The notes under the pieces are model-generated. The model was not told the DNA's origin, ran no database searches, and saw nothing but the letters and a program-made list of their open reading frames with translations. From Rhynchobatus australiae (lineage: Eukaryota): a stretch of 61,811 nucleotides of DNA. A program made the position numbers and the translations under genes. Positions 5,897-61,700 of the stretch are shown piece by piece. The DNA is taken from contig JAUZTB010000071.1 of NCBI GenBank assembly GCA_034780895.1, positions 18,605,521-18,667,331 on the forward strand, in the 5' to 3' direction. The stretch's first letter is position 1. Each line of letters starts with the position of its first letter.

Positions 5897-6112
5897 AAGG
5901 CAAAATAGTGCAGATACTGGAAATCTGAAATAAAAAAATCTGGAAATACTCAATGGGTCAGGTATTATCTATTAAGAGCTAAACAGCGTTAATGTTTCAA
6001 GCACATGACTTTTCCTTAGAACTCAATCTGAAGCAACCTGCCATATCAATGCTGGTTCTCTCTTCATAGATGCCATCTGACCTGCTGAGTATTTCTAACA
6101 GTGTCTGACTTT
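5897..6112. mobile_element. Old palindromic Penelope-like-element end (degenerate hammerhead-bearing repeat)
   Basis: Left arm gcagatactggaaatctgaaataaaa...tggaaatactcaatgggtcagg, right arm catagatgccatctgacctgctgagtatttcta in inverse orientation. Same family as 24855 and 37633. Confidence 0.7.
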
Positions 6113-8599: not shown

Positions 8600-9445
8600 A
8601 TAAGATTCATTAAGATTATAGTTGATCTTTTGTCTCAATTTCCTTTTCTTGTACTGTACCCATATCCCTTGAATCCTTTAATATCCCAAAAATCAATCAG
8701 TATTTCAAATTAACTCAATGACTGAGCCTCCACAGTCCTTTGGGATAGAGAATTCCAATAATTTGCCACCCAATAATTGAAGGAATTTTCATTTATATAG
8801 CTTATAAGATAAAATATCTTTATTAATCACATGTACATCGAAACACACAGGGAAATACATCTTTGCGTAATGTGTTCTGGGGGCAGCCCACAAGTGTCGC
8901 CACGCTGCCGGCACCAACGTAGCATGCCCACAACTTCCTAATTTGTACACCTTTGGAATGTGGGAGGAAACCAGACCACCCGGAGGAAACCCACGCAGAC
9001 ATGGGGAGAATGCACAAACTCCTGACAGACACGGACCGGAATTGAACCTGGGTAGCTGGCGCTGTAATAGCGTTGCACTAACTGTCACACAACCGTTCCT
9101 GCCTTGTGTATAATTCTGAGATTGTGACACCTGGTTCTAGACTCCTCAGGCAGGGCAAACAACCTCTCTGCATCCAGTCTTTCAAGCCATCTAAGAATCT
9201 TGTGAGTTTCAATGACATCTCTCATTTTTATACTCTGGAGAATGCAGACCAAGTCTACTCAATGACTCCCTAAATGGTATATCTGCCATTCCTGAAACCA
9301 TTCAGGAGAATCTTCACTGCAAACCCTCAAGGACAATGTATCCTTTTTTAGCTGTACTCTGTACTCCAATTGTGATCTTACCAAAGCCCTATAACAGTCA
9401 TAAGACAATTCAAATCCTCTTGTAATAAAGGTCAACATACTATGT
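8600..9445 (-). mobile_element. CR1 LINE 3' fragment split by a V-SINE insertion
   Basis: Minus-strand translation includes HSMLTFITRGFE...YRALVRSQLEYRVQ...VCSEDSPEWFQEW (CR1 ORF2 C-terminal region, frameshifted). The element is continuous across 8808-9103. Confidence 0.8.
8808..9103 (-). mobile_element. tRNA-derived V-SINE, near full length
   Basis: On the minus strand: a tRNA-like head with B-box GGTTCAATTCC, the V-domain TTTGTGCATTCTCCCCATGTCTGCGTGGGTTTCCTCCGGGTGGTCTGGTTTCCTCCCACATTCCAAAG, and the tail GTGTTTCGATGTACATGTGATTAATAAAGATAT. A second copy lies at 52067. Confidence 0.9.
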
Positions 9446-11200: not shown

Positions 11201-11329
11201 TCCGATGCACAATAATAACATCCATTTATGTTGCTGTTCACTGATCTGGAAATGTTGACTCTCCACAGACACCACCTGTGTATTTCCATCGTTTCTGGGT
11301 TTATTGTGAGGGTCTGCAGTGCTTTGCTT

Positions 11330-19845: not shown

Positions 19846-19890
19846 ATATTGAGTTGTGTAAGTTTGGAAATAGCTCTCTGTTTTAATACT

Positions 19891-20475
19891 AGAGGAACAA
19901 CTGACTGAAGATGCTGGAACCTAGATGAAATAAACAACAAGATGCTGGAGGAACTCAGCAGGTCAGGCAGCATCCGTGGAGAAAAGCAGANNNNNNNNNN
20001 NNNNNNNNNNNNNNNNNNNNNNNNNNNNNNNNNNNNNNNNNNNNNNNNNNNNNNNNNNNNNNNNNNNNNNNNNNNNNNNNNNNNNNNNNNACAACAAGAT
20101 GCTGGAGGAACTCAGCAGGTCAGGCAGCATCCGTGGAGAAAAGCAGATGGTCAACTTTTCAGGTCAGGACCCTTCTTCAGGACTGACGATAGCAAAAGGG
20201 GAAGCCCAATATATAGGGGGGAGAAACAGAGCAGTGATAGGTGAACAAAAGAGGGGAGACAGAGTGGGTACAAAGTGGTGATAGGTGGATGCAGGTAAGA
20301 GATAGTGATAGGCAGATATGGGGGAGGAGGGCAGAGCAGAACCTGGGGATGGGTCAAAGGTAAGGAGGCAGGCAGCCTGGGGGGAGGGTAGGAGAGGGAA
20401 AGGAGAGAGAACAAAAATGGTGAGGCAAAAAAAGAGAGATAGGCTTGGAAAGGGAAGAAAAGAAGAGGCAAGAGG
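19891..20475 (-). mobile_element. Penelope-like element 3' end / pseudo-LTR with a hammerhead-like motif
   Basis: The minus strand reads a ~290-nt pyrimidine-rich tract, then GTC-CTGAAGA-AGGGTCCTGACCT-GAAA-AGTT-GAC, then the family terminus GATGCTGCCTGACCTGCTGAGTTCCTCCAGC. It is interrupted by a gap with duplicated flanks. Confidence 0.75.
20150..20184 (-). ncRNA. Candidate minimal type I hammerhead ribozyme motif (PLE-associated)
   Basis: CUGANGA box (20180-20174), stem II AGGGUC/GACCU, GAAA box (20160-20157), NUH triplet GUU, and stem I GUC/GAC closing both sides. The stem III palindrome ACGU is altered to AAGU in this copy. Confidence 0.55.
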
Positions 20476-20527
20476 CAACCTTTTCTTTCTGTTTTAAGCT
20501 GCCTTATAATTCAGCAGAGAGAAAAGA

Positions 20528-21603
20528 TACAAAATTGGCTGGATGGTAGGAAACAGAGGGTGATGGTGGGAGGATGTTTCTTAGACTGGAGGTCTGTGAC
20601 TAGTGGTGTGACCCAGGGGTCAGTGCTGGGCCCATTGTAATTTGCCTTCTATATTAACGATTTGGATGAGAATATACAAGGAATAGTTAGTAAGATTGCA
20701 GATGACACTAAAATAGGTGGTGTCATATACAGTGAAAATGTGTATCAAGAATTGCTGTGGGATCTTGATCGGGTGGTTAGGTAAACTGAGGAATGGCAAA
20801 TGAAGTTTAATTCAGATAAGTGTAAAGTGTTACACTTTGGAAGGACAAATCAAGGTAAGACTTTCACATTGAATGGAAAGGCCCTGGGTGATGTTGTTGA
20901 ACAGAAGGACCTTGGAGTAAAGGTGCATAGTTCCCTTAAAATGGAGACAGGTAATAGGGCAGTGAAGAAGGCTTGTGGCATGCTGGCCTTCATCAGTCAG
21001 GGTACTGAATATAGGAGATGGGAGGTTATGTTGCGATTGTACAAATTGGTGGGGCCACACTAGGAGTATTATGTTCAGTTTTGGTCAACCTGTGATAGGA
21101 AGAATGTGATTAGACGGGAAAGAGGGCAAAAAAAGACTTACAAGGATGTTGCCAGGTCTCAAGGGACTGAGTTATAGGGAGAGGTTAGACAGGCTGGGCT
21201 TTTACTCCTTGGAAAGTAGGAGACTGAGGTGTGATTTCATGGAGGTATATAGAATCAAGAGGGGCATAGACAAAGTGAGCAGTCTTTTTTGCAGGGCTGG
21301 GGAATTGAAAACTAGAGGACATAGCTTTAAGGTTAGAGGTAAAAGGTTCAATAAGAACCTGAGGAGCAACTTTTTTACACAGGGGGTAGTAGATATATGG
21401 AACCAGCTGCCAGAGGAAAAGGGTGAGGCAGGTACATAGATACACTTAAGAAGTATATGGACAGGTATTTGGATTGTAAGAGTTTAGAGGGATATGGGCC
21501 AAGTGCTAGGAAATGCAATTAGCTTAAATATACATCTTGGTTACCATGGACAAGTTTGGGCTGAAGGGACTTTATCCATGCTGTACAATTCTATGACTCT
21601 ATG
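20528..21603 (+). mobile_element. 5'-truncated CR1 (HER1-like) LINE with a disrupted reverse transcriptase
   Basis: Translates as NWLDGRKQRVMVGGCFLDWRSVTSGVTQGSVLGPL*FAFYINDLDE...SKIADDTKIGG, then MKFNSDKCKVLHFGR, LSYRERLDRLGFYSLESRRLR and NFFTQGVVDIWNQLP. It has stops and frameshifts, and ends in the tail ctatgactctatg. Confidence 0.95.
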
Positions 21604-23804
21604 CAAGATAAAGAGCAAATGGAAAAATTGTATAAAATATTTCTTGCATATATATTTTTCACAATGGCAGTTAGCATATTATTGCAAGACATTATTTTTA
21701 ATACATGACAGTAAATTATACTTTGTTTAATTTCCACATAGCCATTAACCAAACCATTGCTTGAAATCAAAGTATTTCTTTCATGAATAATTATTTGCAC
21801 ACAACAGGAATAGAAAATCATCAGAGAGAAATGTATTTTCAGTACCTGCATTGAGTGCAAGGTTGTGTGCACCTCAGCACATTCAATTCCATTGACTTCA
21901 ATAACCAAAGATGAGCTTCTCCTCGATACCTTGTAACCAGACTTACCGGAGATCAGTTCCTGTATTTTACTAAGTTATTTATCTCCTCCCTCACACGTTT
22001 TGGGTCACATTGCAGGCTGTGACTAAAAAAAATAAGTGATTTTGTTTTGATTTTCAGCAGTGCTGTGTTCATCTGGGTTCTGGAAGTACTGGAGATAGCT
22101 AAAGGTGATTTTCTTTCTTCCTCTGTTTCTCCCTCAGAGATATTACTTGATATCTTTCCTATTGTTTATTTACTATGGGAACACAGGGACATTTATGAAC
22201 AAAAGTGCCATCCCACTATCCAGTGATTTTGCTTATTCCTTACAAACAAATTCTAATACAACAGCCCTTCACTGCAGCCCTGTATAACAAACACATTATT
22301 GTAACCTTCCATATTAATAGATTTTTTTATTGCATTTCCTCATCTTCTGACTCAGATGTGCAGTTGATTTTAAAAGTATTGTAACAATGAATTCAGGCAA
22401 TTGTAAGTGTGTGTGGGAGCCCAGGAAAATATCACCATAAGATAATCAAATCAATAATTTATAAAATTCCTTCTTTACAGTTCTATCTCTCATTCAGTGA
22501 GATAGTGTTAATGAACAATATTTATGTTTGGCATGCGCATGTCAAGAGTTTGTGTTACCCTACATTGTAATCAGTGCATAATTTCTTATAAAACTCAAGA
22601 TGTTACACATTGTCTTTAATTAGAAGATGGAAGGCAAGTCACAGTTTTGATGTGAATGACAAAGGACAGGTAAGAGCAAACACACAGGAGTTGATGGTAA
22701 CAGTTACCATGTCACGCCTCAGCAATCAAACAAGTGATCTGCAAGAGGCAAGAGCTTTATCAAAGTCTTAAAGTATTGGAGATCCTAACCAAGGGAGACT
22801 GAAAGATTGACAGAAAGGGAACAGTTACCTATGATAAAGATCAAAGGAAGATTGCAGTGTTGCTTAAATGATTAACTGTTTGACTGCTAGTCTGAAAATC
22901 CCTGAGTTTGGATCATTCAGGCTCTTCCAGTCTTACTTTCTTTATTAGTTGTGAAAAATTTAAAAGGAGGNNNNNNNNNNNNNNNNNNNNNNNNNNNNNN
23001 NNNNNNNNNNNNNNNNNNNNNNNNNNNNNNNNNNNNNNNNNNNNNNNNNNNNNNNNNNNNNNNNNNNNNNTATTAGTTGTGAAAAATTTAAAAGGAGGAA
23101 GCAAAATAGATCTGATTTTTGCAGAGATTATGTTACCCTTAGATCACCCTATGCAGCACTGTACAATCTCATGAATTCATTGAATCTGCAATGACATTTG
23201 CACATTTATAACAAAGGCAAAGGAAATTTAATAACTAACAACAGGAAATTACAATTGAAAGAAAGTCAAGATTTGGATACACATTTTAATCTAAGTTAGC
23301 TAATCTTGGGTTGGATAGCAGAGGTATTCAAATGTCAAAGTCAAAATCAGTTCCATAGTTCCTGCAACTACTGGGGCACATTAGATGCTGCAATATGCTT
23401 TGCATCATTGATGGTTGTCAAGCAGAGTGATCTGGTGGCACCCATCTCCTCTCTAGGCAAAACTTACTTGACCTGATATTTTCATTCAAAGACAAATCAG
23501 GCTCAAGGCTGTTTAGTTTCAAAGATCGGATAGGATTGTGCATTTCCATTCTGATGAGAGGAAATCATTTAATTCCTTAATATTTCTGGGTTAATGAAGT
23601 GAAAATTGACCAGAACACCTGCCATGTGTCATTACCAACCAATAGCTCCTGCTGACAGAGGGTGGATATCTGGTGAGGATAGAACTTGTCTTAGGTGTAA
23701 GGTTTCCTGAGGTTGTATGAGCTTCTGAAATTCACTAATAACAATCTTGGCTTACTTTTATACTGCAGATTTATTGCAGTTAGATGTTCAAAGCTGCTTC
23801 AAAG

Positions 23805-24030: not shown

Positions 24031-24854
24031 GTTCATATGTTAATACTGACCAAAAAATGGTCAAGTTGTCTACAGTATTGTGCTAGTTATGCGAATGTCA
24101 GTTTGGACAATGTGTTGGTGGATTGCCAACAACCGTGAATAACAATCAATGCCATCAGGATAAGGATAGGAGAAGGGAAACCTTTGAAGAGAGATGTTTA
24201 ACACTGTTGACCAAATTACCTATCAAAAATTATGAGTCATGCGGAAAGGCGAGTGCTTAAACTGAACAGATACATTGGAGAAATGAAGAATAATCATAAA
24301 ACAATTGANNNNNNNNNNGAGATCTAACTTAAATAATTCTCTTAATGGTTTACCATGTCAATAACTCAAAGATACATTTGGATACACCTGTTACATATCC
24401 AGTTGCTGCTACAATCTTAAAAGTTATTCAGCAAATTATCAACACCAGCTGTGAGTGATGGCTGTGTAGGAATAGTGAGAAAGGAAAATGTGGCGTACTT
24501 CTTTAGAAATAATTCCTACAAGTATCAGAAAAGCCACAGTTTTGGAATCTGCATTGGTTGATAGGATGATCAGTTTTCAGACACAATTTGGAGATCTATC
24601 AAATTATGTGCTTATTGTTTCTTTAATTATATAAGTTAACTNNNNNNNNNNNNNNNNNNNNNNNNNNNNNNNNNNNNNNNNNNNNNNNNNNNNNNNNNNN
24701 NNNNNNNNNNNNNNNNNNNNNNNNNNNNNNNNNNNNNNNNNAAGTTAACTCCAGCATTTCAGCTCCACCTCCCAACCACTCAGTCCGAGTTAACCTCCAG
24801 CTCTGGAAGTTAAAGAGCAAAGCTCTTATGGGTAACATTAGGATGTTGAAAATC

Positions 24855-25124
24855 AAAACAAAAACTTTAGATTCTGGAAATCTGAAATAAAAACAGTCTG
24901 GAAATCTGAAATAAAAACAGAAAATGTTCAAAACACTCAGCAGGTCTGGCAGCATCTGTGGATAGAGAAATGGAATTAGTATTTCAGGTCCAAGACCCTT
25001 TGTGAGTACTGGGCAGTTTTCCTGATTCTGATAAAGGCTCCTGGACCTGAAACATTAAGTCTATTTCTCTATCCACAGATGCTGCCTGACCTGCTGAGTG
25101 TTTCTAATATATTGTGTTTTTATT
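24855..25124. mobile_element. Palindromic Penelope-like-element end with two degenerate hammerhead motifs
   Basis: About 85-bp inverted arms (aacactcagcaggtctggcagcatctgtggatagagaaat / atttctctatccacagatgctgcctgacctgctgagtgtt), plus a 24-bp tandem duplication at 24873-24920. Confidence 0.85.
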
Positions 25125-25540
25125 GGCATAGGGATATTCTTCCAATACAAACGCTTTTGTTGTTTCTTTGCTTTTATATATCAACTACCTTTTTGAAAGT
25201 TAACGTGACTTATGACTCCCAAAAATTAACCATTTCAGAACAACCTGTGCATCCAAATCAAGACTTAATTTCAACTTTGATTTATCATGGTTCTCTATTA
25301 AATATCTTTTCCCTTTGTTTTAAATATGCAGGGCAATGAGAAAAGGTCATTGCAGAACCAAATTAATGCTTCCACAATTTTTTTTTCATGCTTCCACCAG
25401 TTAAACACACTGCATCAACAAACATCCTCCTTAGCTCATGTCTGACTTATTTGTCATCTCCTCCAGTTTCTGTTTGCCAATTTTTTCGCCACTGAAACAA
25501 CATTTCCCTACTTATTTTATGAAAAGTATTTAGGATTTCA

Positions 25541-30830: not shown

Positions 30831-30967
30831 TAAAAGGAGCAGTGCAGATCACACTTTGGCCTGGCTAACATGAGCTAACAAAATTTATCCCAGCTAAAAC
30901 CATCAACTTCAAGATACAACAGGAAAAATAAAGGAAATCTGAATAAAAATTATCAAGAAGTCATTCT

Positions 30968-31725
30968 CAGAATCAGGTTTATTATCACTGATTTAGATGA
31001 TGTGAAGTTTGTTGTTTTCTGGCAGCAGTACAGTGCAAATACATAAAATTACTACAAATTACAAAAATAAATAAATAGTGCAAAGAAAAGGAATAAGGTA
31101 GTGTTCATGGGTTCTTTGACTGTTCAGAAATCCGATGGTAGAGGGGAAGAAGCTGTTCTTGTCAGCGTTGAGCAAGAGCAAGCTCTCAGAGAACCCAAAT
31201 ACAGCACACCGATGCAAGACTGGAGTCAGGATACTTCCTCAGGACAAACACAGGCNNNNNNNNNNNNNNNNNNNNNNNNNNNNNNNNNNNNNNNNNNNNN
31301 NNNNNNNNNNNNNNNNNNNNNNNNNNNNNNNNNNNNNNNNNNNNNNNNNNNNNNNTCAGGTGTGTGTCATTATGCAAACAGTCCAGCATGGAATCCATGT
31401 GCTGGACAACAAGGCATTAAAGGAGCCAAATTGAGGGCCAGAACCATGACAGTTCTTGAATCATTGAGTGTGGGTCTTCAGGCTCCTGTACCTCCTCCCC
31501 GATAGTAGTAACAAGAAGAGGGCATGTCCCAGATGGTGAGAGTGATGGATGCTGCCTTCTTGAGGCACCGCTTCTTGAAGTTGTCCTCGTTGGTGGGGAG
31601 AGTTGTGCCCATGATGGAGCTGGCTGAGTTTACAACTGCCAGCAGCCTCTTGCGATCATGTGCATTGGAGCCTCCATATCAGGCTGTGATGCAACCAGTC
31701 TCCACCATACATCTATAGAAATTTG
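30968..31725 (-). mobile_element. Rex1/Babar LINE 3' fragment, split by a solo LTR
   Basis: Reverse complement of 43380-43856. The tail is agaatcaggtttattatcactga, and the element resumes after 31452 with tcattgagtgtgggtcttcaggctcct...atgatggagctggctgagt. Confidence 0.9.
31160..31451 (-). mobile_element. Solo LTR (Gypsy-like), gapped
   Basis: Termini TGTCA...TGACA (5-bp inverted, TG..CA) and a perfect 5-bp TSD GTTCT at 31155-31159 and 31452-31456. Removing it restores the Rex1 sequence gaagctgttcttgaa. Strand is inferred from resemblance to fish Gypsy LTRs (TGTCATGGTT...TTTGGGTTC...TGACA). Confidence 0.8.
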
Positions 31726-32461
31726 TAAGAGAAATTTCTTTGATGGAATTGAATCGAGCTCCCTAACATACTTACTTCAGTTGCAGTCAACGTCTCACCT
31801 TACTAATAACAAATTTCTCTTCCTTATAAATTATATGTTATGGTTTGTAAATTTTTGCTGATATATTTGGTTTTTAATGGTGATTTTGTACCTATGTACA
31901 AACATCTTGCACAGAGTAGAAGGTTAAGGTGTTTAAGAAATTATTATTCTGCTGCATTTCCAGTGATTTTTTAGGGTTTTACTTGGAGGTGTTACTCCCA
32001 TTGTCAAAAAGAACGATTAACTGTGATTTCTTTCAACTCTTCAGAGGCAGTGCACTTCCATTTCTTTTCTTCAGAGACTCTGTTTATTTTTTAATGGTGG
32101 TAATAAAAATGGCTGAAATTCTGGAATAAAGACAGAATATACCAGAAATTCAGTCATTCCATTGCAGGGTCACATTAGGAATGCTGATTTATCTTCTTTG
32201 CTCAATTGCTCATCAATTCCAAATAAAGCAAACGCTCATGATGAGCCTTTTTAATAGCCCAAGAGTAAGAAAACATTTGGCCCACCATACTTGTGCCTGT
32301 GTCACCTCTATCAAAGTGCTATCCTGCTTTTTATCCTATATCCATCAAAAAAATGTTTAAAGGTATAGAAAAAATTTTCATTTAAAAGTTCCTGTGAATC
32401 TGCTTTGCTTTCAATCAATGGATTAAAATCAAAAATCTTCATACAGTAGAAATTTAAAATG

Positions 32462-32625
32462 GGAAAAAAACAGAAAATGCTGGAAAAACTCGGCAGGTCA
32501 GGCAGCATTTGTGGAGAGAGAAAGAGGCAACATTTTGGATCTGCGACTCTTTGTTAGAGATTGGAAAGAGAGAGAGAATGCAAGTTAATTTTCAGTAGTT
32601 GGGGAAGGGATAAGCAGAACACAGG
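32462..32625 (-). mobile_element. Penelope-like-element end, degenerate
   Basis: aaacagaaaatgctggaaaaactcggcaggtcaggcagcatttgtggagagagaaa followed by a purine-rich tract. Confidence 0.75.
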
Positions 32626-36600: not shown

Positions 36601-36785
36601 AAAATGCTGGAGGGACTCAGCAGATCAGGCAGCCCCTATAGAGGGGAATAAACAATTGACATGTCAGGTCAAGACCCTTCATCAGGACTGGAAAGGAAGA
36701 GGACAGAAGCCAGAATAAGAAGGTCGGGGAAGGGGGAGGAGCACATGCAGGCAGGTGACAGGTGAGTTCAGGTGATGGGGGAGAG
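36601..36785 (-). mobile_element. Penelope-like-element end with a hammerhead relic
   Basis: Minus strand CAGTC-CTGATGA-AGGGTCTTGACCT-GACA-TGTC-AATTG, with the family terminus running into the gap. Confidence 0.75.
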
Positions 36786-37632
36786 TTGCCAGTAACAGAG
36801 AAATATTAGGTGTGAACTTTATGTTATGAAACCAAGACAGTTGAAGGTGAATGGAGGAGGATTTATTTACGTGAGTGGATATGTAAAATAGTTGAATCTG
36901 TGAACTAAAATGAGTTGGACGAATTTTATATTTCTCCAGAAATTTATTTCTACTAAAGCTAAAATATATCACAATGAGTTTTGCTTAATAGGTTTATAAA
37001 CAAGATATCCCTCTCCACTAAGATCACCAATGGGAATGGCCTGAGATGCTGGACTAATAATTTTCCCAGTCATATGTTTTCACACAATATTGGCCAAAAA
37101 TAACTGATGCTTCCAGATTCCAAAACCTAAAGTAATTTAAGGGCTAGGGGGCCTGAAAGGTTTCTAGTCCATTGGCAGCTCCGATCAAGGAACCAGACCC
37201 CATTGGTATAGAATTTCCTATTCATGTATCTTGAATTTAGTCACTGAAGTGATTTAATCTATTGGACCAGAATTGGCTGGGAAATTCCAGAAATTCCACA
37301 GAACTACCAGCACTTCTCAGTGTGAGAACCATCAAATACAAGCTTCCTATGTTAATGCTGAAGTCCCAGATATGCTAGCTGCCCTTCATAAATAATTTTC
37401 ACTGATTGCATTCAGACATTGGAATCCAAATGGAGTCAGGTGGTGCAGTCTGAACTTGCAGCAAGTTTGACTTGGCTCAGGAACAGTGAGTCACCTCATT
37501 TCAGCGAAGAGCAATGTCAATGAGGGACCAGGGTAAGTATCAGATAATTAATGTTCTTTTGAATTAAGTTTTAAGTAAACTAAATTTTTAACAAAATTTG
37601 TAACAGTTCTACTTACATTTAATAATCTTAGA

Positions 37633-37877
37633 TGAAAAACACGATGATGCTGGAGGAACTCAGCAGGCTAGGCACCATCCGTGGAGAAAAGCAGGTGGTC
37701 AACATTTGGGGCCAGGACCCTTCCTCAGGACCCGAAACTTCTTCAGGTCCCGAAGAAGGGTAATGAACTGAAACGTTGATCACCTGCTTTTCCCTACGGA
37801 TGCTGCCTGGCCTGCTGAGTTCCTCCAGCATCATCGTGTTTTTCATCTGGATTCCAGCATCTGCAGTCCTTTATTTC
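37633..37877. mobile_element. Young palindromic Penelope-like-element end with a 15-bp TSD
   Basis: About 100-bp inverted arms (tgaaaaacacgatgatgctggaggaactcagcagg / cctgctgagttcctccagcatcatcgtgtttttca). The direct repeat TTTAATAATCTTAGA occurs at 37618-37632 and 37878-37892. Confidence 0.9.
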
Positions 37878-38399
37878 TTTAATAATCTTAGAATGCATTT
37901 GAATACGACTGAATGCTACATTTGACAGCTGGCTAAGCAGGGGTGTGGCTTTGCTGTTTTATTAGCTACTTTGTGGGTAGACCTTGTACTACACCCATCC
38001 TACCTCCACCCCCATTCCTGCACAACAGCATTGTGTCATGCAAAATCCTGTTGCTGCGCTGAGCCTTGCTCTGCAGGTTTGGTACAGCTTCAGGGATCAA
38101 GTTCACAATGGTAAATCTGGAAGTGGTAACATCATATTTATTACAGAGCTTGGTGATAAGTACTGGGGGCTTGCTGCTGGAAGCAAGTTCTACCTTGATG
38201 TATCTCACTTTGCAGTGTTGGAAATCTAAAATTTTCTGCTGCTGCTGTATCAAGACAGCAATAATGAATAGGTCTGAAGGAAATGGGAGGAAAATAAACA
38301 AGACTTAGCTGAGGTTTTATAACCCTGCAGGATAACCAATGGAATGGTGTGGAGGGGAATAAAAAAATGTTTTTTTAATCTTATATGCTATGACCAAGG

Positions 38400-38720: not shown

Positions 38721-40899
38721 CCTCAATCTATAAAAGCATTTATGATCACAAATTGATTGCCCACTTTATTCAATAGTTAATTGGTACAAGGAACTATAAC
38801 AGGGAAAATCCACCAATTATTAGCTCAGTTTCAACCCCAGATTGGAACCTTAAATAACAATTCTGTCCTCAAATATTCAACAAATCANNNNNNNNNNNNN
38901 NNNNNNNNNNNNNNNNNNNNNNNNNNNNNNNNNNNNNNNNNNNNNNNNNNNNNNNNNNNNNNNNNNNNNNNNNNNNNNNNNNNNNNNNNNNNNNNNNNNN
39001 NNNNNNNNNNNNNNNNNNNNNNNNNNNNNNNNNNNNNNNNNNNNNNNNNNNNNNNNNNNNNNNNNNNNNNNNNNNNNNNNNNNNNNNNNNNNNNNNNNNN
39101 NNNNNNNNNNNNNNNNNNNNNNNNNNNNNNNNNNNNNNNNNNNNNNNNNNNNNNNNNNNNNNNNNNNNNNNNNNNNNNNNNNNNNNNNNNNNNNNNNNNN
39201 NNNNNNNNNNNNNNNNNNNNNNNNNNNNNNNNNNNNNNNNNNNNNNNNNNNNNNNNNNNNNNNNNNNNNNNNNNNNNNNNNNNNNNNNNNNNNNNNNNNN
39301 NNNNNNNNNNNNNNNNNNNNNNNNNNNNNNNNNNNNNNNNNNNNNNNNNNNNNNNNNNNNNNNNNNNNNNNNNNNNNNNNNNNNNNNNNNNNNNNNNNNN
39401 ACAGCAGATTGTCTCGTAACACTAAGACTTTTAACTAAGTTAAATCTACACAAAATAAATGTCAGGGCATGATCCTCTTGGCTTCTAGGAATCCAACAGC
39501 TGGATTCCTGATAATAGGTTTCAACTGACCAATGAATTCAATCAATAAAGTGGAAAAATGCTTTTTACTATTAGTATGCAGACATTAGATTGTGTTGGTC
39601 AATAGTTCAATTGAGACCAATGAAAATAAAAGCTGTTCTGGTCTTTAGTATGTGCCTGTACATTAGTGTTTGTTGATTTTTTTGTGTACTGAGGGCCAAG
39701 AAATAATCACAAATCAAAATAAGTCCAAAATAACGCAAAGAGACAACACAAATATCTGAAAAATAAGAGGAAAGACCAGTAGGCCTATAAACATAGATAC
39801 CTCATTTATGTACATCTTAACTATGTAACATTCCAGAGAGCATAAAAATGATTAATCTGCTGAATGCATTACTTATGTGCAGTCTGATTACCTTTACATA
39901 TGAATGTGACAAGAAAAAGATTTTGCAGAGTTGGGAGTGGAGAAGGTACCTAGGAAACCTGGCATATGATTTTGATGTAATTGATTAAAGATGATTATAG
40001 ATTCTAACTGGAGCATGAGGTGGGTGTAGCAGTGGGGCATCAATAAGAGTGTCAGCTCCCTATTGCAAAGCTCAGTTACCAAATAATGGGACTTTGCACA
40101 TTTTTGACTTTGTAAATGTGCTGCCCTTCCCTTCTATAAGGGGCGTAATTTAGGGAGGTTTACAGTCACTGGCCCAACTAGGCTGCGCTCTGGTCATGTG
40201 AGATGTGTGGTCAGTAGCTTGAATGGTTATGAGAAGGTTGGCTTGAGATTGTGGCTTGGGAACCTATGGTTTGAATGGTGGAAGGGTGGCTGGGGAGAAA
40301 ATTGAGACCAGAATTTTGAATGAGAAGCTTAAAAGGTTTGACCTTGTGGGATCAGATCACAGAATCGGGATTTGGACAATTGCAGTGAAAGGGAGGAACT
40401 GAATGGTTACAGTAATTAATCCACTCACTTGGTCGGCATCCCAGACTACTGTGTGACAGAAAGGATACCTCCTGCTACAGAAATCATTTTAGGTGTGTGA
40501 AGATGATTCAAGCAGTCGAATTTCTGCGGTTACGTGAAATGACTAAAAAATAGTCATTCTTTCACCTTGGAGAAGACAATCAGTTAATGCATAATGCTGA
40601 TAAAGGGCATCTTGTAAATGAATTTGTAGGCAACTATAATCGTGGGAGGAATAGTGTTAGGTGAAACAGAAAATGGGCTGAAAATGGGCTTACAGGAAGA
40701 AATAATGCANNNNNNNNNNGTAGGCAAGTTTGAAGTTTAAATTAGTTAGGGTTATCTCTGCTTGTCATTGTCTGGAATGATACTCATTGCTGACCAAACA
40801 GATCTAAATGAAATGAAATGGATCTGTGAACCTCATGGTATGTGATATCAGACAGATGTTGAGTGACCTTGGATTGACCGCAGGGCTCCAATTCTATAA

Positions 40900-41690: not shown

Positions 41691-42002
41691 AGTGCAGAGG
41701 TGATTCACCAGGATGTTGCCTGGATTGGGGCGTTACAGCGATAAGGAGAGGTGGGTCAGGCTGAGTTTGTTTTTGCTGGAGTGTAGGAGACTGAGAAATG
41801 ACCTGCTGGAGATGGATAAAATTATAAGCAGCATCAGTGAAGTAGATAGTACTTTTTTTCCCATGATGGGGTTGTCTAAAACATGAGGACATGAGTTTAA
41901 GGTGAGAGGCTGGAGGTTTAGAGAAGTCTGAAGGGGGTTATTTTTCACACAGACTGTGGTTGAATTCTTAAATATGCTGCCTGAAGAGGCAGTGGAGGCA
42001 AG
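41690..42002 (+). mobile_element. CR1 LINE ORF2 C-terminal fragment
   Basis: gtgcagaggtgattcaccaggatgttgcctggattgg...gaggacatgagtttaaggtgagagg...tttttcacacagactgtgg; homologous to 21130-21430. Confidence 0.9.
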
Positions 42003-42771: not shown

Positions 42772-43856
42772 TGATTACAGCTTGGCATTCAACACCATCC
42801 CGTCAGTACTAATCAACAACTTCAAAACCTGGGCCTCAGTACCTCCCTCTGCAACTGGATCCTCGACTTCCTTATTGGGAGACCACAGGCAGTGCGGATC
42901 AGTAATAACATCTCCTCCTCGCTGACAATCAACACAGGCGCACGTCAAGGATGCATGCTTAGTCCACGGCTCTATTCTCTCTACACTCATGACTGCATGG
43001 CTAGGCACAGCTCAAACACCATCTGTAAATTCGCCAATGAAACCACTGTTGTTGGTCGAATCTCAGATGGTGACAAGGAAGCATACAGGAGTGAGATAGA
43101 TTGGCTGGTTGAGTGGTGTTGCAAAAACAATCTCACTCTCAACATCAGCAAGACAGAGGAATTGATAGTGAACTTCAGGAAGGGGAAGTTGGGAAACCAC
43201 ACACCAGTCCTCATTGAGGAGTCAGTGGTGGAAAGGTTGAGCAGCTTCAAGTTCCTGGGTGCCAACATCTCAAAGGATCTATCCTGGGCCCAACACATTG
43301 ATGCAATCACAAAGAAGGCATGCCAACGGCTTTACTTCATTAGGAGTTTGAGGTGATTTGGTATATCACCAAAGACACTTGCAAATTTCTACAGATATAC
43401 GGTGGAAAGCATTCTGACTGGTTGTATCATTGCCTGGTATGGATGCTCCAATATGCAGGATCAAAGGAGGCTGCAAAGGGTTGTAGACTCAGCCAGCTCC
43501 ATCACGGGCACATCCCCCCACCATCAAGGACNNNNNNNCAAGGACATCTTCAAGAGGCGGCGCCTCAAGAACGCGGCATCCATCATTAAGGACCCTCACC
43601 ATTCGGGACCAGTCCTCTTCTCTACTACCATCAGGGGCCTGAAGACCCACACTCAATGTTTCAGGGACAGCTTCTTCCCCTCTGCCATCAGATTTCTGAA
43701 TGGTCCATGAACCTATGAACACTACTCCATTATTCCTCTTTTGCACTATTTATTTATTTTTGAAACTTATGGTACTTTTTATGTCTTGCACTGTACTGCT
43801 GCTGCAAAACAACAAATTTCACGACACATGTCAGTAATAATAAATCTGATTCTGAA
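42772..43856 (+). mobile_element. 5'-truncated Rex1/Babar LINE with a defective reverse transcriptase
   Basis: [10 protein letters not shown]; [20 protein letters not shown]; [11 protein letters not shown] (the FADD catalytic motif is mutated); [15 protein letters not shown]; FKFLG; premature stop at 43354-43356; ESILTGCIIAWYG; FRDSFFPSAIRFLN; tail aataaatctgattctga. Confidence 0.95.
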
Positions 43857-44939: not shown

Positions 44940-45698
44940 CTAATCCAGACAAGTGTGAGGTATCGGACTTGGGAGGTCAAATGTAAGAGGAAAGTATACA
45001 TGGCAGGGCCTCAGAAACATTGATGTAGAGAGGGATCTTGGAGTTCAAGTCCATAGCTTCCTGAAAGTAGCAACACAAGTGGATAGAGTGGTAAAGAGGG
45101 CACGTGACATCCTTGCCTTCATCAGTCGGGGCACTGAGTATAAAAGTTGGGAAGTCATGTTGCAGCTGCATAAAACTTTGTTTAGGCCACATTTGGAGGA
45201 TTGTGTACAGTTCCAGTCACATCACAGGAAAGCTATGGAGAGGGTGCAGAAGAGGTTCACTAGGAATTGGCCGGATTAGAGAGCACCCGCTCTGAGGAGA
45301 GACTGGACAAACTTGGTTTGTTTCTTCTGGGGTGCTGGAGGCTGAGGGGTGGCCTGATAGAGGTATATAAAATTATGAGGGACATAGATAGGGTAGATAG
45401 TCAGAGACATTTTTCCCAAGGTAGAATTATCAAATACTAGAGGGCATAGATTCAAGGTGAGAAAGGGAATGTTTAAAGGAGAGTTACAAGGCAAGTTTTT
45501 TGCACAGAGACTGGTGGGTCACCAGAACAGTTGCCATGGGAGGTAGTAGAAGCAGATATGTTAGCAATGTTTGAGAGGCATCTAGGCAGGCACATGAACA
45601 GCATTGGGAAGGGAGGGATATGGACTATGTACAGGCAGATAGGATTAATTTATATTGGCATCATGGCCCTGTTCCTGTGCTGTACTGTTCTGTGTTCT
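44940..45698 (+). mobile_element. 5'-truncated CR1 LINE
   Basis: VDRVVKRARDILAFISRGTEYKSWEVMLQLHKTLFRPHLEDCVQF...MERVQKRFTR, with the tail cctgttcctgtgctgtactgttctgtgttctgt. Confidence 0.93.
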
Positions 45699-46379
45699 GT
45701 GTTGGTGGCTTACATTCATGTTGGGAATGAGTGAGAAATTTCTTTCCCTTTTGTCTGGAGTAGGAGTCTTTGAAATTTGTTTGTGGATTCCTACAGAAAT
45801 ATATAACATACAGAAAATTTCAGCTGGAACTTCACACCTATGACAATTTGGTGAGCTGAAGTTAAGACACAATGAAAATTTGCCACAAGCAGGGTATAAG
45901 TTGTTCTATTCCAAACCTTTTGCTCAGCTTTTGTCACTACTCCCAAGGAAGACCAATGGTCTAGAAATATTTTGATACCACATCCATTCTGAGAGGGCAA
46001 ATTGAGCACACAAGCATCCAAATAGGTGAGTAAGAAGCATGTGCACATTCTGTGGCAGGAGCATCATGATTACTATTTTGGAACATGAGGTCTTCATCAG
46101 AAAGAAGCCTTAGGCATAACACCTAAAATCTGTTCCATGATGATATCCTGAACTGGCCTCCTTTTAACCCTGCCAACTCCACGTGGCCTAACTATTAGCT
46201 CTGAAAGGGATTGGTGGAGGTTGCAAGCAAGTTTAACAAAACATATATGTCTGCTTTGTCTCATATGGTAGCATNNNNNNNNNNNNNNNNNNNNNNNNNN
46301 NNNNNNNNNNNNNNNNNNNNNNNNNNNNNNNNNNNNNNNNNNNNNNNNNNNNNNNNNNNNNNNNNNNNNNNNNNCTCAT

Positions 46380-49500: not shown

Positions 49501-51269
49501 AGAGCAAATTTTATTAAAGTAAGTATACTGGAATTAATTTGCCAAAATAAAATTAAACGTGCCCTGATTGTAAATGATACCTACTGCAGGATAAGTGAAT
49601 CACATGAGTGTTCAGGAACTGAACCTACAAGTCAAGCTAAAGTCTAAGAGTTGGGGGATCACATTAGTAGGACCAGCTACTTAATATCACACTAGAATAT
49701 TTGGTAAAGCTAGAAAAAGCTGCTTATGTACAGAAACATCTTGGTTTTATTTCTTCTGTTGACTGCACATCTATTTAAAAGTGAATGTTACTTGCATTAC
49801 ACCATAATAAGAAGGTAATTGCCTGTTCCAGGCTTCATTATGTCAGCATAAAGTATTAGATCTGGGACATCACACATCAAAAGTTTATGATCCACTGTCT
49901 TTTGTTGGCAATCATATAATGTACAGGGCATCAGTGAAAACAATTTTCTGTTATTTGATAGTGTCTTGTCAAATCACATTGGAGATTCTAGCCCAATAGT
50001 ATATTTATACATTCTTAAATAGCCCCTGAGGAAACCTGTCATCCTGTTAAAACAGAGAACCATTTTAACTGTATATTGAATTTCCAGTCTTCCGTATGTA
50101 CAGTAACATTTTCCTTAACCACTTAACTGCTGGAGTTAGTTCCATTTTTTCTAAGAATCCCCTTTTCTGTTTGCTTTCTGCATGATGTTTAGCACACATT
50201 TTTCTTCAGATTCACAACATTTGGAATTCACCCACTTTATGATTGTCAAGACAACCTTTTCAATGAATATAATAATCTTTGTCAGACAAGTGATTAAAGA
50301 CTGTGCTTACAATATGTTTTCTATTATATAATTGTCCCTAATACAATTACTGCACATTCCATATGCCAATTGTATAATATGATCTCATTGGCAACCAGTA
50401 CCAGTATAAAGTGACTGACAGAGAATGAATTCAGTAGTGCTTTTGCATCACAGAATGGAATAAAGTTACCAATCAGAAACAGGAAAAATAAAGGACACAG
50501 AATATTTTAAAATTTGGGTGGAACCCTGTATGCAAGCATTTCAGGTTCTAACTGGGGACACTGCATTCCCTATTTAATAGACCACCATGTAAACTCAGTA
50601 CATGTTCAAGTNNNNNNNNNNNNNNNNNNNNNNNNNNNNNNNNNNNNNNNNNNNNNNNNNNNNNNNNNNNNNNNNNNNNNNNNNNNNNNNNNNNNNNNNN
50701 NNNNNNNNNNNNNNNAGGGGCGGGACCTCTATGCTATGCTACCTGAGACCCAGTCACCATCTGGACCACATTAATCTCTCCATTCTAAGCTAGTATTATT
50801 ACCATTGTTAAGCTTTCCAGTTGTGTGTGAATTTTATGAATCTTCTATTCTAATGTTATTCTGTGCAAGACAAACCCATGTATCAATGTTATATATGCTA
50901 TATAACAGGAGCAAGCAAGACAGCTAAAGTGCAATTTAAAAACAGTATCTCTTTTAAGTGGGTGTTTATTTTTGTTAATGCATGGATTAGTATTTTCCTA
51001 TTCAAATGGCTACCCTTCAACTGGATCTCAAAATGGTATTGCCTGTCTGTGGAACCATAGCTTGGCTGACTTTCAGGGCATTTCAGGGGCGGGACCTCTA
51101 TGCTATGCTACCTGAGACCCAGTCACCATCTGGACCACAATACTCGACTTGAGCAAGATAAGCCTTCACCATCTGACCAAAGTAAGTGTGGCAGTGGATA
51201 GATAGTAGATGGCAATCCTGGGTGGGAACAGGGTCAGCTCTGTTATGGTGATAGCAAAGGAATTAGTGG

Positions 51270-52066: not shown

Positions 52067-52347
52067 AAAGATATCTTTATTAGTCACATGTACATCGAAA
52101 CACACAGTGAAATGTATCTTTTGCATAGAATGTTCAGTGGGCAGCCCGCAAGTGTCACCACACTTCCGGCACCAACACAGCATGCCCANNNNNCAACTTC
52201 CTAACCCATACATCTTTGGAATGTGGGAGGAAACCGGAGCACCTGGAGGAAACCCACACAGGCACGGGGAGAACATACAAACTCCTTACAGACAGTGACT
52301 GGAAATAAACCCAGGTCACTGGCACTGTAAGAGCATCACGCTAACCA
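52067..52347 (-). mobile_element. tRNA-derived V-SINE, near full length
   Basis: Colinear with 8808-9103; V-domain ctttggaatgtgggaggaaaccggagcacctggaggaaacccac and tail aagatatctttattagtcacatgtacatcgaaacac. Confidence 0.9.
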
Positions 52348-54844: not shown

Positions 54845-55071
54845 CGTGAGAGGGATAATTTTAAGGTGATTGAAGGAAGATATAAGGGGGATGTCAGAGG
54901 TAAGTTTTTTTACACAGAGAGTGGTGGGTGCATGGAACGCACTGCCTGCGGAGGTTGTGGAGGCAGATACATTAGGAACATTTAAGAGACTCTGAGATAG
55001 ACACATGAGTGATAGAGAAATGGGGGGCTATGTGGGAGGGAAGGGTTAGATAGATCTTAGAGCAGGATAAA
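54845..55071 (+). mobile_element. CR1 LINE 3' fragment
   Basis: ttttttacacagagagtggtgggtgcatggaacgcactgcctgcggaggttgtggaggcagatac translates as FFTQRVVGAWNALP; runs into the gap. Confidence 0.92.
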
Positions 55072-55751
55072 NNNNNNNNNNNNNNNNNNNNNNNNNNNNN
55101 NNNNNNNNNNNNNNNNNNNNNNNNNNNNNNNNNNNNNNNNNNNNNNNNNNNNNNNNNNNNNNNNNNNNNNNNNNNNNNNNNNNNNNNNNNNNNNNNNNNN
55201 NNNNNNNNNNNNNNNNNNNNNNNNNNNNNNNNNNNNNNNNNNNNNNNNNNNNNNNNNNNNNNNNNNNNNNNNNNNNNNNNNNNNNNNNNNNNNNNNNNNN
55301 NNNNNNNNNNNNNNNNNNNNNNNNNNNNNNNNNNNNNNNNNNNNNNNNNNNNNNNNNNNNNNNNNNNNNNNNNNNNNNNNNNNNNNNNNNNNNNNNNNNN
55401 NNNNNNNNNNNNNNNNNNNNNNNNNNNNNNNNNNNNNNNNNNNNNNNNNNNNNNNNNNNNNNNNNNNNNNNNNNNNNNNNNNNNNNNNNNNNNNNNNNNN
55501 NNNNNNNNNNNNNNNNNNNNNNNNNNNNNNNNNNNNNNNNNNNNNNNNNNNNNNNNNNNNNNNNNNNNNNNNNNNNNNNNNNNNNNNNNNNNNNNNNNNN
55601 NNNNNNNNNNNNNNNNNNNNNNNNNNNNNNNNNNNNNNNNNNNNNNNNNNNNNNNNNNNNNNNNNNNNNNNNNNNNNNNGGCCTTACCATTCCAGCACTT
55701 GAAACTCTGAACCAGAAATTTCAGAAGACTGGAGCCAACTTTGAGTGATTG

Positions 55752-56120
55752 AACACAGAACATAGAACAGTACAGCATAGGAATAGGCCCTTCTGCCCAT
55801 GTTGTTGTATTGAACAAATTAAACTAGAAATTAAGCACCTAACTAAACTAATCCTTTCTGTCCATAATCCTCCATTCTCTGCATATTCATGTGCCTATCT
55901 AAGAGCCTCTTAAATGCCTCTATCTTATTGGCCTCCACTACCACCCCTGGCATTCCAGGTACCCACCACTCTCTGTGTAAAGAACTTGCCCTGCATATCT
56001 CTTTTGAACTTCCTCCCTTTCACCTTAAATGCATGTCCTCTAGTATTAGACATTTTGATCCTGAGGAAAAGACACCAGCTCTCTACTTTATCTATGCTTC
56101 TCATAATCTTATAAATTCTA
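55752..56120 (-). mobile_element. CR1 LINE 3' end
   Basis: acagaacatagaacagtacagcataggaataggcccttctgccc ... acccaccactctctgtgtaaagaacttgcc ... ttaaatgcatgtcctctagtattagac. Confidence 0.92.
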
Positions 56121-58244: not shown

Positions 58245-58720
58245 TATTCATTCAAAGAGTATGGATGTCACTGTTGAGGCTAGCATTTATTGCCCGTCCC
58301 AAATTCCACACTTATGGAAGTTGATCAGCTTGCCAAGCCATTTCAAAGGACAGTTGCAGGGTCAACCTAATTATTGTGCATCTGGAGTCACATACAGGCC
58401 AGACAGTATCAAGCTGACAGTTTTTCTTCCCTGAAGGATATTAAATGACCAGATGTATTTTTATGACAATCCAGTAATTTCTTGATCCTGGCTTCTTTTT
58501 CAATTTTGAGGATATTTCTAGCTTTTAGGATCATCGCCAATCCCGGCTTCTTTTTAAATTTCATCCATATTTAATTATTTGAGTTTAAATTCTTTATACT
58601 ACTGTGATGGGGATGAACATCACCATGTTAATCCCCGTCACAGTAGTATAAAGGATTTAAGAATAGGCCAGACCTCTGGATACTAGTTCTGCAGTTTAAC
58701 CAATATTACTACCACTGCCT
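58245..58720 (-). mobile_element. Old tRNA-derived elasmobranch SINE with a LINE-derived tail
   Basis: Tail ggctagcatttattgcccgtccc (shared with the 905-1300 family), body ctggagtcacatacaggccagac...ttccctgaaggatattaaatgaccagatg, and head cctctggatactagttc...actaccactgcc. Confidence 0.75.
58585..58660. repeat. Near-perfect inverted repeat (36-bp arms, 4-nt loop)
   Basis: ttaaattctttatactactgtgatggggatgaacat-cacc-atgttaatccccgtcacagtagtataaaggatttaa, with 33/36 Watson-Crick pairs. Confidence 0.95.
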
Positions 58721-61700
58721 TGCAATGGATGCAATAGACAACATATGTGATATGACATTTTCTGAGTATTTAAATGCTGAAGGGGAAAAGATAGACAAAA
58801 TTTAATGCAAGCGGCTTCAAAAAATTCAATTAAAAGCCTTTTTACACAAACAACTTCAGCATTCCAGGAGACCTATTTTATTTAACTGGAATTATCGACT
58901 ACTGGAAATTATTTGGTCATCTGAATGATGTCATTAGGGACACCTTTAACACTGCAGGTGGGAAAATGACCAACAACATATTTACTATCACTGGAAAACC
59001 TGACCAGGTAAATAAATGAGGGAGATTCACCATAACTAATCTCTCCTTGTACTTCTAATCATTAATAGATGTAATTGATTGGAAAATCTATCTCAGTGGT
59101 ACACCAGATATTACACTGCAAAAAAAAGAATTATCATACAGAGTTTTTATTATTGCAAATTTTAAAAAGTAATCATTCATATGTACAGATCTAAGGTATC
59201 TCCTGCACTATTGNNNNNNNNNNACTATTGAATTATTGGCCTACTTTCATCAAGTTACTTGAACAGCACTAATGTTAGGGAATTTCTGAGTGGTCTTATT
59301 TCTGAACCCCAAGATGAGGAAGACTCAAAATGTAAAAGATTTAAATTTTGAGTCTTCCTCATCTTAAAATTACTCACAGAATGAACATCTTCCACCTTAC
59401 GTCCATTCCTACGCTTCTTGGAAGATGCCAGCTTTTGTTTCTGTTTAATTCCATGTGCACATCAATCTCAATCCTTTTCTTATCTGACAACTATATAAGA
59501 CTGTTTTTACCAACAGTTTCAGATACATATGGAGATGAAGGGACACACTTATTTTCTGCTTCTCCCTTATCTGCATACGGAGGTTAAATGAACATTCACA
59601 ATAGATTATGTTAACTAAGAACATCTTTGGTCCATATAATGCACACTAGTGATCACCAAATCAGTAATCCATGTAGTTCCTGAATTTTTCTCATCTGCTG
59701 TATAATATTGAACTCAGACATGAAATCACTGAAAGATGGGGCCTGTTTTTTTTCTCTTTAACACTGGTGTATTGCTTTCCTGTACTAAAATAGTTAACTG
59801 TTTAAGTGGGTATTGCTGAAGGACCAGATGTGTTAAAACATTGAATTATCTAGTGGAATATTGACAGGATTGACTGAGATGTATGAATCTTGACTATTTT
59901 CATTCATTTTTTGGTTTGTAAAAGAAATAAAAGTCATAATAAAGCAATGTTGTTTTAACTTTATTTTCAGTGTTAAGGTACACGGAGAAATATGAATGCA
60001 GTAAGATACATGGCCAATTGATGCAACTGACCATTTGAGCAATTTACCACTATAATGTACATGAGCTGTACCTCATGTCGCAATGTATGACTGTGTGNNN
60101 NNNNNNNNNNNNNNNNNNNNNNNNNNNNNNNNNNNNNNNNNNNNNNNNNNNNNNNNNNNNNNNNNNNNNNNNNNNNNNNNNNNNNNNNNNNNNNNNNNNN
60201 NNNNNNNNNNNNNNNNNNNNNNNNNNNNNNNNNNNNNNNNNNNNNNNNNNNNNNNNNNNNNNNATTAAGGTGCGGGCTACACTTCATGGTAAACATGGCT
60301 ACACATGGTAAACTGAATGTACAGAAGGTTGGTATAGCCACGGTGATCAAGCACATGGAAATGGACTTCTGGCAAAGTTTCATCATTGAATGGTTGGGCA
60401 CAAGTATTCATCAGATGTATATCACTGTGACTCATTAAGAGAATTTTGTGTTAGAATATGTTTTGCAAGTTCATTACAAACTTAATATTCATCAAATATT
60501 TATAGCCATGTCAATTTACGACTTGCTAGATTGGCACTTGGGTTGTAGGAATACTTTCACATATTGGGAATGCTATAATTTAAAATCGAGATCTATATAT
60601 GGAGATGACAGCATGTAGAAGTAAATGAATTATTATCCCCTTGCTTTCTGTTTTCACATATATTAGCTTATATAGGACAACCTTCACATTATGGGTGTCA
60701 CGTGTACATCGAACAATGATGGTATGTTTGAAATTGCCTTGGAAACAAGGACTTATGTCTCCCAGCATGCTCTATCTGACTGACAGGTCACCTACTGAGG
60801 TCTATTAAGTCTTTCTGCTCTGTTACACACTGAAGAATGTGATGAAGGACACACATTTATCTCTCTGTCACTCACATTACATCAGGCTGCTCACTGATAA
60901 GGACTATTACCCTCCTGCCCCCCTCATCAAAAGGCCCTGTAGCAACTGCGAAGGTGTCCCCAGTAACTCTAGTGTTTTAAATGGCACCATTGTTTGCCTC
61001 ACAAGGCCTTGACAATTGGTCAGAGCAGTCTATGAGTATTCTAACACATCAGCCTGACAGAGTAACATCATCCTTATTGAGTTCAGATGACATTAGANNN
61101 NNNNNNNGACATTCTCATTACAGGCCTGAAATTTTAGTCAAAATAAGCTTCAGGGATCTTATCCTGGTAACAATTTAGCTGTGTTGTCTCTGATATTTCT
61201 GAGAATAAAAATAGGATTGACGGTTTCTTGCTCAGTGGATTGTACTTAAAGATCTAAAAATGTATTACAGAAAAAGCCATCTTGATCTCATTCGAAAGAT
61301 ATATTTTTGAAAAACTAGTAAACAGTAAAATTCTAATGAGAGTCTGATTTAAAGAACACACTTGAATAAAATACTCATCTTGGACAAGGGAGTTTAATGG
61401 CCAAAAATATCTTAAAGTTTCAGTTATTTTCAGTGTCTATGTGATTCAATTATATCACGTCAAATAAAGTGAGGTACTGCAACGCTACATTGAAGATCGT
61501 CGCTAATACTAGCCTGAAATCTCCAGCCAAATGTGACCAGTTTAATCATGCTAAGCAAAATTAACTTAGTTGTTTTTTTAAAAGCAGCATTCCCTTCCCT
61601 GGCCAGTACCACATTGTTCCTATCTAGTAAAAAAAGTTCTAAAGCAATTGCAGTTGGTTTAAAACCATAGTCACATGAGATTAGTTAAGGACACTCACGG

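Follow-up and report, generated by a model that had tools for sequence, protein, structure and literature searches.

What kind of insertion is palindromic, carries a hammerhead-like motif on either strand and yet lies inside a long and perfect flanking duplication? This is the question raised by a hairpin near position 37.6 kb of the window, by which we mean the whole stretch of DNA that was analysed (61,811 nucleotides of Rhynchobatus australiae). Judged by its anatomy, the element is likely a minimal insertion of the Penelope-like element (PLE) type, in which two copies meet head to head and both hammerheads are damaged.

Anatomy of the insertion

The sequence-only reading of this locus had described inverted arms of about 100 bp with a hammerhead-like motif on each strand, and these are indeed present: the two arms (37630-37736 and 37742-37848) are inverted, 107 nt long each and 86% complementary. 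The short arm (37633..37731, minus strand) is an inverted, 5'-truncated PLE-type terminal repeat without a tail, and the long arm (37747..37845, plus strand) is a sense copy of the terminal repeat, likewise 5'-truncated. At the right end only, the long arm continues into an unpaired extension of 29-32 nt (37846..37877, plus strand), which corresponds to the PLE-type 'tail' as defined in the available part of PMC8557442. The fold of the hairpin amounts to about -180 kcal/mol per strand (z-scores of -20.9 and -19.2), and for each strand none of 200 shuffled sequences was as stable. The long dsRNA hairpin that the sequence-only reading expected from either strand would presuppose transcription of the locus.

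The 245-bp insert is enclosed by an exact 15-nt direct repeat, of which the left copy (37618..37632; A or T at 13/15 bases) is matched without a difference by the right copy (37878..37892). The last 3 bases of the left copy also pair with 37846-37848. The claim of a perfect 15-bp TSD thus proved correct: there is not a single N between the two 15-mers (of the 35 scaffold gaps, the nearest on the left runs up to 36600 and the nearest on the right begins at 38888), an equally good duplication was obtained for 0 of 400 random flank pairs, and the composition-based chance of finding one is about 4e-6 over 441 boundary placements. Exact 15-mer repeats spaced 100-600 bp apart fall into six groups in the window, four of which straddle assembly gaps, and only the TSD pair and a repeat at 50716/51085 are free of gaps. 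An assembly artefact as the source of the hairpin was ruled out from the assembled sequence by the 15 differences between the arms, the unique flanks and the distance of more than 700 bp to the nearest gap.

Several other observations concern duplications and pairing. The gap-free repeat just mentioned (50716-50776 and 51085-51145; 61 bp, 97% identical, 369 bp apart) is possibly a small LTR-like or tandem unit. Exact duplications at 19934/20091, 22943/23071 and 46260/46375 flank gaps of 100 N and are likely unmerged contig overlaps, which may be mistaken for TSDs or for tandem repeats. In reverse complement, the first bases of the tail (37846-37854) are similar to the end of the left TSD copy (37623-37632), with 3 exact bases or 8/9 when one bulge is allowed, a likeness that suggests primer-template pairing at the inner start site.

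The shape invites comparison with MITEs and fold-back DNA transposons, which share the short hairpin and the flanking duplication. A MITE moved by a DNA transposase and built from captured PLE sequence would be short and non-coding and have long inverted arms, as is the case here, but we give this origin next to no credence, in agreement with the earlier suggestion that the element is a MITE in appearance only. The overhang at the right end makes the inverted repeat non-terminal, the TSDs are long and differ in length between two members of the family (15 and 13 bp), and the relatives include one-armed and 5'-truncated copies. The TSDs of cut-and-paste transposons usually measure 2-11 bp.

The hammerhead motifs

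Both motifs are of the minimal type I and each has one mutation in the core. In the minus-strand motif (37697..37732) helices I and II can be formed with 4 bp each, and core position G12 is changed to C (position 37708). In the plus-strand motif (37746..37781) core position U4 is changed to C (37751) and helix II is reduced to 2 bp. The G12 of the hammerhead is essential for catalysis.

The descriptor used for our search follows the minimal type I motif and consensus given in the available text of PMC4209133. With one core mismatch allowed it yielded four matches in the window, all within the repeat family of the hairpin, and on eight shuffled sequences it gave 0, 0, 0, 1, 0, 0, 0 and 0 matches. 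Neither arm of the 37.6-kb element has the exact core pattern, and the single intact core in the window belongs to a related copy near 20 kb (at 20180; referred to below as the 20k copy). Rfam reported no hammerhead family for the window as a whole (none of its 10 matches at E<=1 reached the gathering score), nor for the element (9 matches at E<=10) or the 20k copy (3 matches). Because minimal motifs are without helix III, we did not count this silence against the motif.

Since both motifs carry a core mutation, an active ribozyme in the 37.6-kb element is unlikely as far as can be judged from its sequence, and the earlier description as a ribozyme element, if a working one is meant, is not supported. 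The motifs lie on opposite strands, so that a single transcript holds one motif only, buried in a long hairpin, and minimal hammerheads are described in the available part of PMC4209133 as cleaving weakly and requiring a dimer. We infer that the ribozyme is likely a passenger of the insertion and not its engine. That the element would be a functional self-cleaving RNA, replicating like a retrozyme via ribozyme-processed intermediates, can hardly be reconciled with these data: two hammerhead-like motifs above the shuffled background are in its favour, but each has its core mutation, helix II is broken in one of them, both are hidden in the hairpin and no transcript offers the pair needed for a dimer. 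Moreover, retrozymes are direct tandem repeats (PMC7229834; bioRxiv 10.64898/2026.07.22.740005, both in the parts available).

Relatives within the window

By BLAST and profile search we found seven core-bearing loci of the repeat family, near 5.9, 19.9, 24.9, 32.5, 36.6, 37.6 and 43.9 kb, together with a tail-only fragment near 18.2 kb. A profile made from 11 known arms, whose scores for its own training copies are circular, added no further strong copy (the weak match at 11241-11304 has an E of 0.015). Fold-backs account for 3/7 of the core-bearing loci, the other four (the 20k, 32k, 36.6k and 43.8k copies) being one-armed. The closest relative of the 37.6-kb element is the 20k copy (19887..20484, minus strand), a single, tailed and 5'-truncated copy with a 100-N gap inside and about 300 bp of pyrimidine-rich sequence upstream. 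It has a flanking duplication of its own (12/13; 19874-19886 and 20485-20497), which was matched by 0/400 nulls. The sole direct duplication in the family, and the one candidate for the partial direct tandems by which PLEs form pseudo-LTRs, measures 57 bp (19934/20091); it lies on both sides of a 100-N gap and resembles an assembly overlap.

A second fold-back (24848..25126, minus strand) has its tailed arm on the left and a centre unlike the others, and a third (5897..6112, minus strand), the most decayed, combines the same layout with a third kind of centre. With 33-43 differences from the 37.6-kb arms over about 80-88 sites, these two fold-backs (25k and 6k) belong to another subfamily. Their candidate duplications, 9/12 for the 25k and 11/15 for the 6k fold-back, do not exceed chance (nulls did as well in 30% and 19% of cases, respectively).

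Members of the family end at either of two defined 3' positions, which are separated by about 30 nt, and a tailed arm is paired with a tail-less one in 3/3 fold-backs. The tail-less arm of the 25k fold-back stops at the same boundary as the short arm of the 37.6-kb element, 8 nt short of the conserved motif of the tail, and that of the 6k fold-back stops within about 3 nt of that point. Single copies end at either of the two 3' ends, the 20k copy being tailed and the 32k copy tail-less. At the other end, all six fold-back arms stop no more than about 10 nt from helix I, and 3/4 of the single copies continue upstream. The centres of the three fold-backs differ, and only that of the 37.6-kb element belongs to its subfamily. 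A second copy with this centre was not found in the 56 kb of readable window sequence, and two exact-pattern scans for the element in bacterial and archaeal genomes returned 0 and 0 matches. The sequence-only reading had left a choice between a recurrent by-product of PLE insertion and an independently amplifying family. Three fold-backs with three centres in one window fit the recurrent by-product better. As the other two fold-backs are of another subfamily, their different centres do not speak against an amplified family of the 37.6-kb type, to which the perfect outer arms (see below) lend some support.

In three single copies (20181-20212, 36685-36718 and 32538-32590, all minus strand) a pyrimidine run lies just 5' of helix I, and these runs end in a splice-acceptor-like YAG that is intact in 2/3 and decayed in the third. 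For Penelope in Drosophila virilis, the available part of PMC4209133 places the end of an intron at the 5' edge of helix I. Fold-back arms end at the YAG point or a few bases from it; as the upstream region is pyrimidine-rich throughout, we regard this as a lead only. An exact 24-bp tandem duplication (24873-24920) within the tail of the 25k fold-back possibly reflects a repeated start of reverse transcription.

The centre of the hairpin and its formation

The head-to-head junction (37729..37747) is composed of a 10-nt sense piece of the hammerhead (37729-37738), identical to the single 20k copy at 8/10 positions, and a 10-nt antisense piece (37738-37747), identical at 10/10. Read against the 20k copy the centre as a whole runs antisense (18/20), sense (8/10), antisense (10/10) and sense (15/18), successive segments overlapping by 3, 1 and 1 nt, and the 3-nt overlap is a pairing between the hammerhead's own helix strands. 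The clustering of the junctions at the hammerhead may be understood from these helix strands being the first place for mutual priming, be it between two antisense cDNAs or within a single folded one. The centre can alternatively be parsed as an 18-bp tandem duplication (37720-37755) with 3 differences.

We consider it probable, with considerable room for doubt, that the head-to-head pair within its 15-bp TSD arose in one insertion, carried out in trans by a PLE enzyme. The enzyme would nick both strands of AT-rich DNA 15 bp apart and each nick would prime reverse transcription, one cDNA starting from the end of the tail and the other about 30 nt inside. Both cDNAs would halt where the hammerhead has its 5' edge and be joined via microhomologies of 1-3 nt supplied by the hammerhead's own helices. 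We infer these enzymatic steps from an element of Anolis (see below); the anatomy itself is observed. Target-primed reverse transcription by a PLE had been put forward before, with the unequal arms and the long TSD as its tell-tale signs, which is in line with published PLE anatomy. The sequence-only reading had not, however, identified the unequal arm as the known tail of PLEs, nor the inverted terminal repeats lying head to head as an arrangement already described for them. Self-priming or resolution by an endonuclease could yield the same shape, going by the available text of PMC3846280 and PMC8557442.

Alternatively, a single PLE-type copy may have come first and have received its inverted arm later, by a replication template switch or by repair, apart from retrotransposition. 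Template switching is described in the available part of PMC8604942 as homogenising the arms of inverted repeats and could in this way explain why the outer arms are perfect, and the reading of the centre as an 18-bp tandem would also suit such an event. Nevertheless, we deem it very unlikely, for it leaves unexplained both the duplication that brackets the whole palindrome and the stop of the short arm at the tail boundary, which is seen in 3/3 fold-backs and in one single copy.

Divergence of the arms and age of the insertion

The single insertion that we favour has to account for an uneven divergence, since arms made from a single RNA should age evenly. The two arms of the 37.6-kb element differ from each other at 15/88 core sites, and the differences are 0 in the outer 36 bp and 15 in the inner 68 bp, climbing toward the centre (0/36, 4/29 and 11/39). 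The contrast between outer and inner parts has a Fisher P of 0.001 (0.003 without CpG sites) for a boundary that was chosen after the fact, and the probability of an equally long clean run anywhere in the arms is 0.016. Each arm has 6-7 private changes and differs from the independent 20k insertion at 11-12/88 sites; in the outer 36 bp the differences from the 20k copy are common to both arms. At this arm divergence a perfect TSD has a probability of 0.02-0.10. In the 25k fold-back the arms are 17/89 apart, the flanks are decayed and there is no gradient (5/36 and 9/61). A signature of RNA editing was absent, with A-to-G making up 1/13 of the polarised changes on the sense strand and 4/13 on the other strand. 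The description of the element as young is therefore half right: it suits the perfect TSD and the perfect outer 36 bp, but not arms that differ at 15/88 core sites. Either the insertion is old, its TSD was kept by luck and the outer arm was copied later, or it is recent and was templated by aged RNA, in the form of two decayed donors or of one older palindrome. For a single-step origin this would mean an addition to the scheme, namely later arm-to-arm DNA copying, or donor RNAs in which the hammerheads had already decayed.

The case of one older palindrome leads to a different view of the hairpin, as a mobile non-autonomous unit that was transcribed and re-inserted by a PLE enzyme. The two nick-primed cDNAs would be complementary and anneal, the outer part of the short arm would be rewritten from the long arm in each round, and the inner arms would retain old differences. 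This predicts what is observed: the TSD and the outer 36 bp are perfect, and differences become more frequent toward the centre. It also fits that the distance between the arms (15/88) exceeds that of either arm from the 20k copy (11-12/88) and that the arms appear as old as those of the 25k fold-back (17/89). We nonetheless regard it as an unlikely explanation. No second copy with this centre turned up in the 56 kb of readable sequence, the centre itself resembles a one-off with three strand switches, a hairpin of -173 kcal/mol would hide the inner start site, the sense strand has no excess of A-to-G changes (1/13, against 4/13 on the other strand) and the boundary between outer and inner arm was picked post hoc.

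If re-mobilisation holds, an RNA-borne fold-back element would join the known non-autonomous PLE derivatives. Taken further, palindromic mini-PLEs might form a mobile class of their own, the complementary cDNAs of which anneal without end-joining and re-insert efficiently while the hammerheads decay, a view that we hold only tentatively and consider doubtful. Were it true, such hairpins would amount to a retroelement resembling a MITE but moving via RNA, and the boundary between outer and inner arm would map the meeting point of two cDNAs in vivo. With the single insertion that we prefer, the hairpin is structurally ordinary PLE debris, of a kind that may be misfiled as MITEs or as miRNA-like in the genomes of rays and sharks. 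Minimal hairpins are frequent, at 3/7 family loci in 62 kb, and the one described here is a natural record of an open question, that is, how PLEs form their inverted repeats and tails.

Coding content and setting of the locus

The assignment of the repeat to the PLEs rests on its anatomy, and no PLE protein gene could be linked to it. Among the 293 gap-free frames of at least 52 aa in the window, the set having been limited to N-free frames of that length, Pfam identified neither an RT/GIY-YIG gene (the 1 match is to a LINE-type RT) nor a host gene. A protein search with translations of the repeat gave 454 candidates, none of them with E<=0.01, and the same translations had 0 matches among 1.84 billion representatives. 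An 80-aa frame across the palindrome was rejected as a gene (9 candidates, none with E<=1; all Atlas scores below 0.9), and for two candidate exons next to the element a comparison with the PDB produced only weak matches and no convincing stretch.

The window consists of AT-rich DNA laden with repeats. The LINE-type RT fragment (42775-43353) has its best named matches, among 42, in sawfish (78%), stingray (70%) and skate (61%). It is part of one of two decayed LINE copies (42775-43855 and 30967-31729) in which Pfam recognises RT and an ALKBH8_N-like tail domain, and the 43.8k fragment of the hairpin's family adjoins the 3' end of the copy at 42775-43855. A second LINE-like repeat is represented by fragments at 20785-21440, 41692-41960, 45020-45700 and 54860-56113. 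We also observed a dispersed repeat pair of about 270 bp with a SINE-like look (8811-9082 and 52068-52345, 81%) and a decayed 5S rRNA-like sequence (23461-23565, minus strand; 34 bits, the gathering score being 38), which is either a pseudogene or a 5S-derived SINE head. Two short, near-perfect hairpins (58585-58660 with 36-nt arms, 92%, and 59311-59365 with 26-nt arms, 96%) are unrelated to the element. The first has a TTAA tetramer at both ends, and such ends occur in some small DNA-transposon derivatives.

Comparison with known systems

The comparisons below, like the citations above, refer to the available parts of the papers concerned. An inverted 5'-truncated copy and a tail of 30-40 bp at one end are general features of PLEs (PMC8557442), and inverted pLTRs with short extensions are counted among their quirks (PMC8969392). 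Many of the PLE traits are found here: a terminal repeat with a minimal type I hammerhead (one core mismatch per arm in the 37.6-kb element, none in the 20k copy), a tail at one end only, in the 30-40-nt class and 29-32 nt long in the 37.6-kb element, an inverted 5'-truncated copy joined head to head, 5'-truncated single copies, and TSDs of variable length (15/15 and 12/13) in AT-rich DNA. Reports of palindromic mini-PLEs from sharks or rays, or of their origin by two-ended priming, were not encountered in a literature search that covered few subscription journals, and the repeat family of the hairpin may well have been catalogued already.

Minimal hammerheads occur in PLE repeats, also as pairs on opposite strands 100-700 bp apart (PMC4209133). 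With these the motifs described here share the short helix I, the extra base before helix II, the opposite strands and the palindromic 4-nt helix III position; they differ in being only about 15 bp apart and in having a core mutation each. Cartilaginous fish are not among the hosts that the available part of PMC4209133 gives for minimal hammerheads. Non-LTR retrozymes (PMC7229834; bioRxiv 10.64898/2026.07.22.740005) are likewise short, non-coding and hammerhead-bearing; they derive from PLE repeats, are mobilised in trans and have been reported from one cartilaginous fish. Whereas retrozymes are built of direct repeats with a hammerhead per unit, the two copies in the 37.6-kb element are inverted and their minimal motifs damaged, and a tandem array of its unit was not found.

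Among endonuclease-containing PLEs, insertions of Pen2/Pen2a of Adineta vaga, Naiad and Penelope/Poseidon with inverted pLTRs joined head to head (PMC3846280, PMC8557442) share with the element the inverted 5'-truncated repeat, the one-ended tail of about 30 nt, the TSD outside the whole unit, the AT-rich target and the palindromic junction. For rotifer PLEs inverted pLTRs, a 31-bp tail, TSDs of 8-10 bp and mostly head-to-head junctions have been described, the latter being ascribed to self-priming (PMC3846280), and resolution of an intermediate by an endonuclease has been offered for such a shape (PMC8557442), although the formation of the inverted copy and the tail is stated there to be not understood. 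Unlike in these PLEs, both copies in the 37.6-kb element are cut to about 100 bp and there is no coding sequence, the TSD is 15 bp instead of the 8-10 bp of rotifer PLEs, and the inner arms are far more diverged than the outer ones, which differs from the Pen2, Naiad and Penelope insertions as described.

A further system for comparison is PAc, a Poseidon element of Anolis carolinensis that has been studied in vitro (PMC11167929). Its purified protein nicks and extends both strands, favouring AT-rich DNA, and uses two start sites that bound the tail, and the hammerhead, about 100 nt upstream, can be dispensed with, at least as far as its cleavage is concerned. The distance from start to helix II is 111-118 nt in PAc; in the 37.6-kb element the two ends lie 88-91 and 120 nt from helix II. 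The likeness seen here is one of properties, not of sequence or protein, and palindromic products are not described for PAc in the available part of PMC11167929. Two starts on either side of a tail, used to prime both strands of an AT-rich target, are properties that would generate the structure found here.
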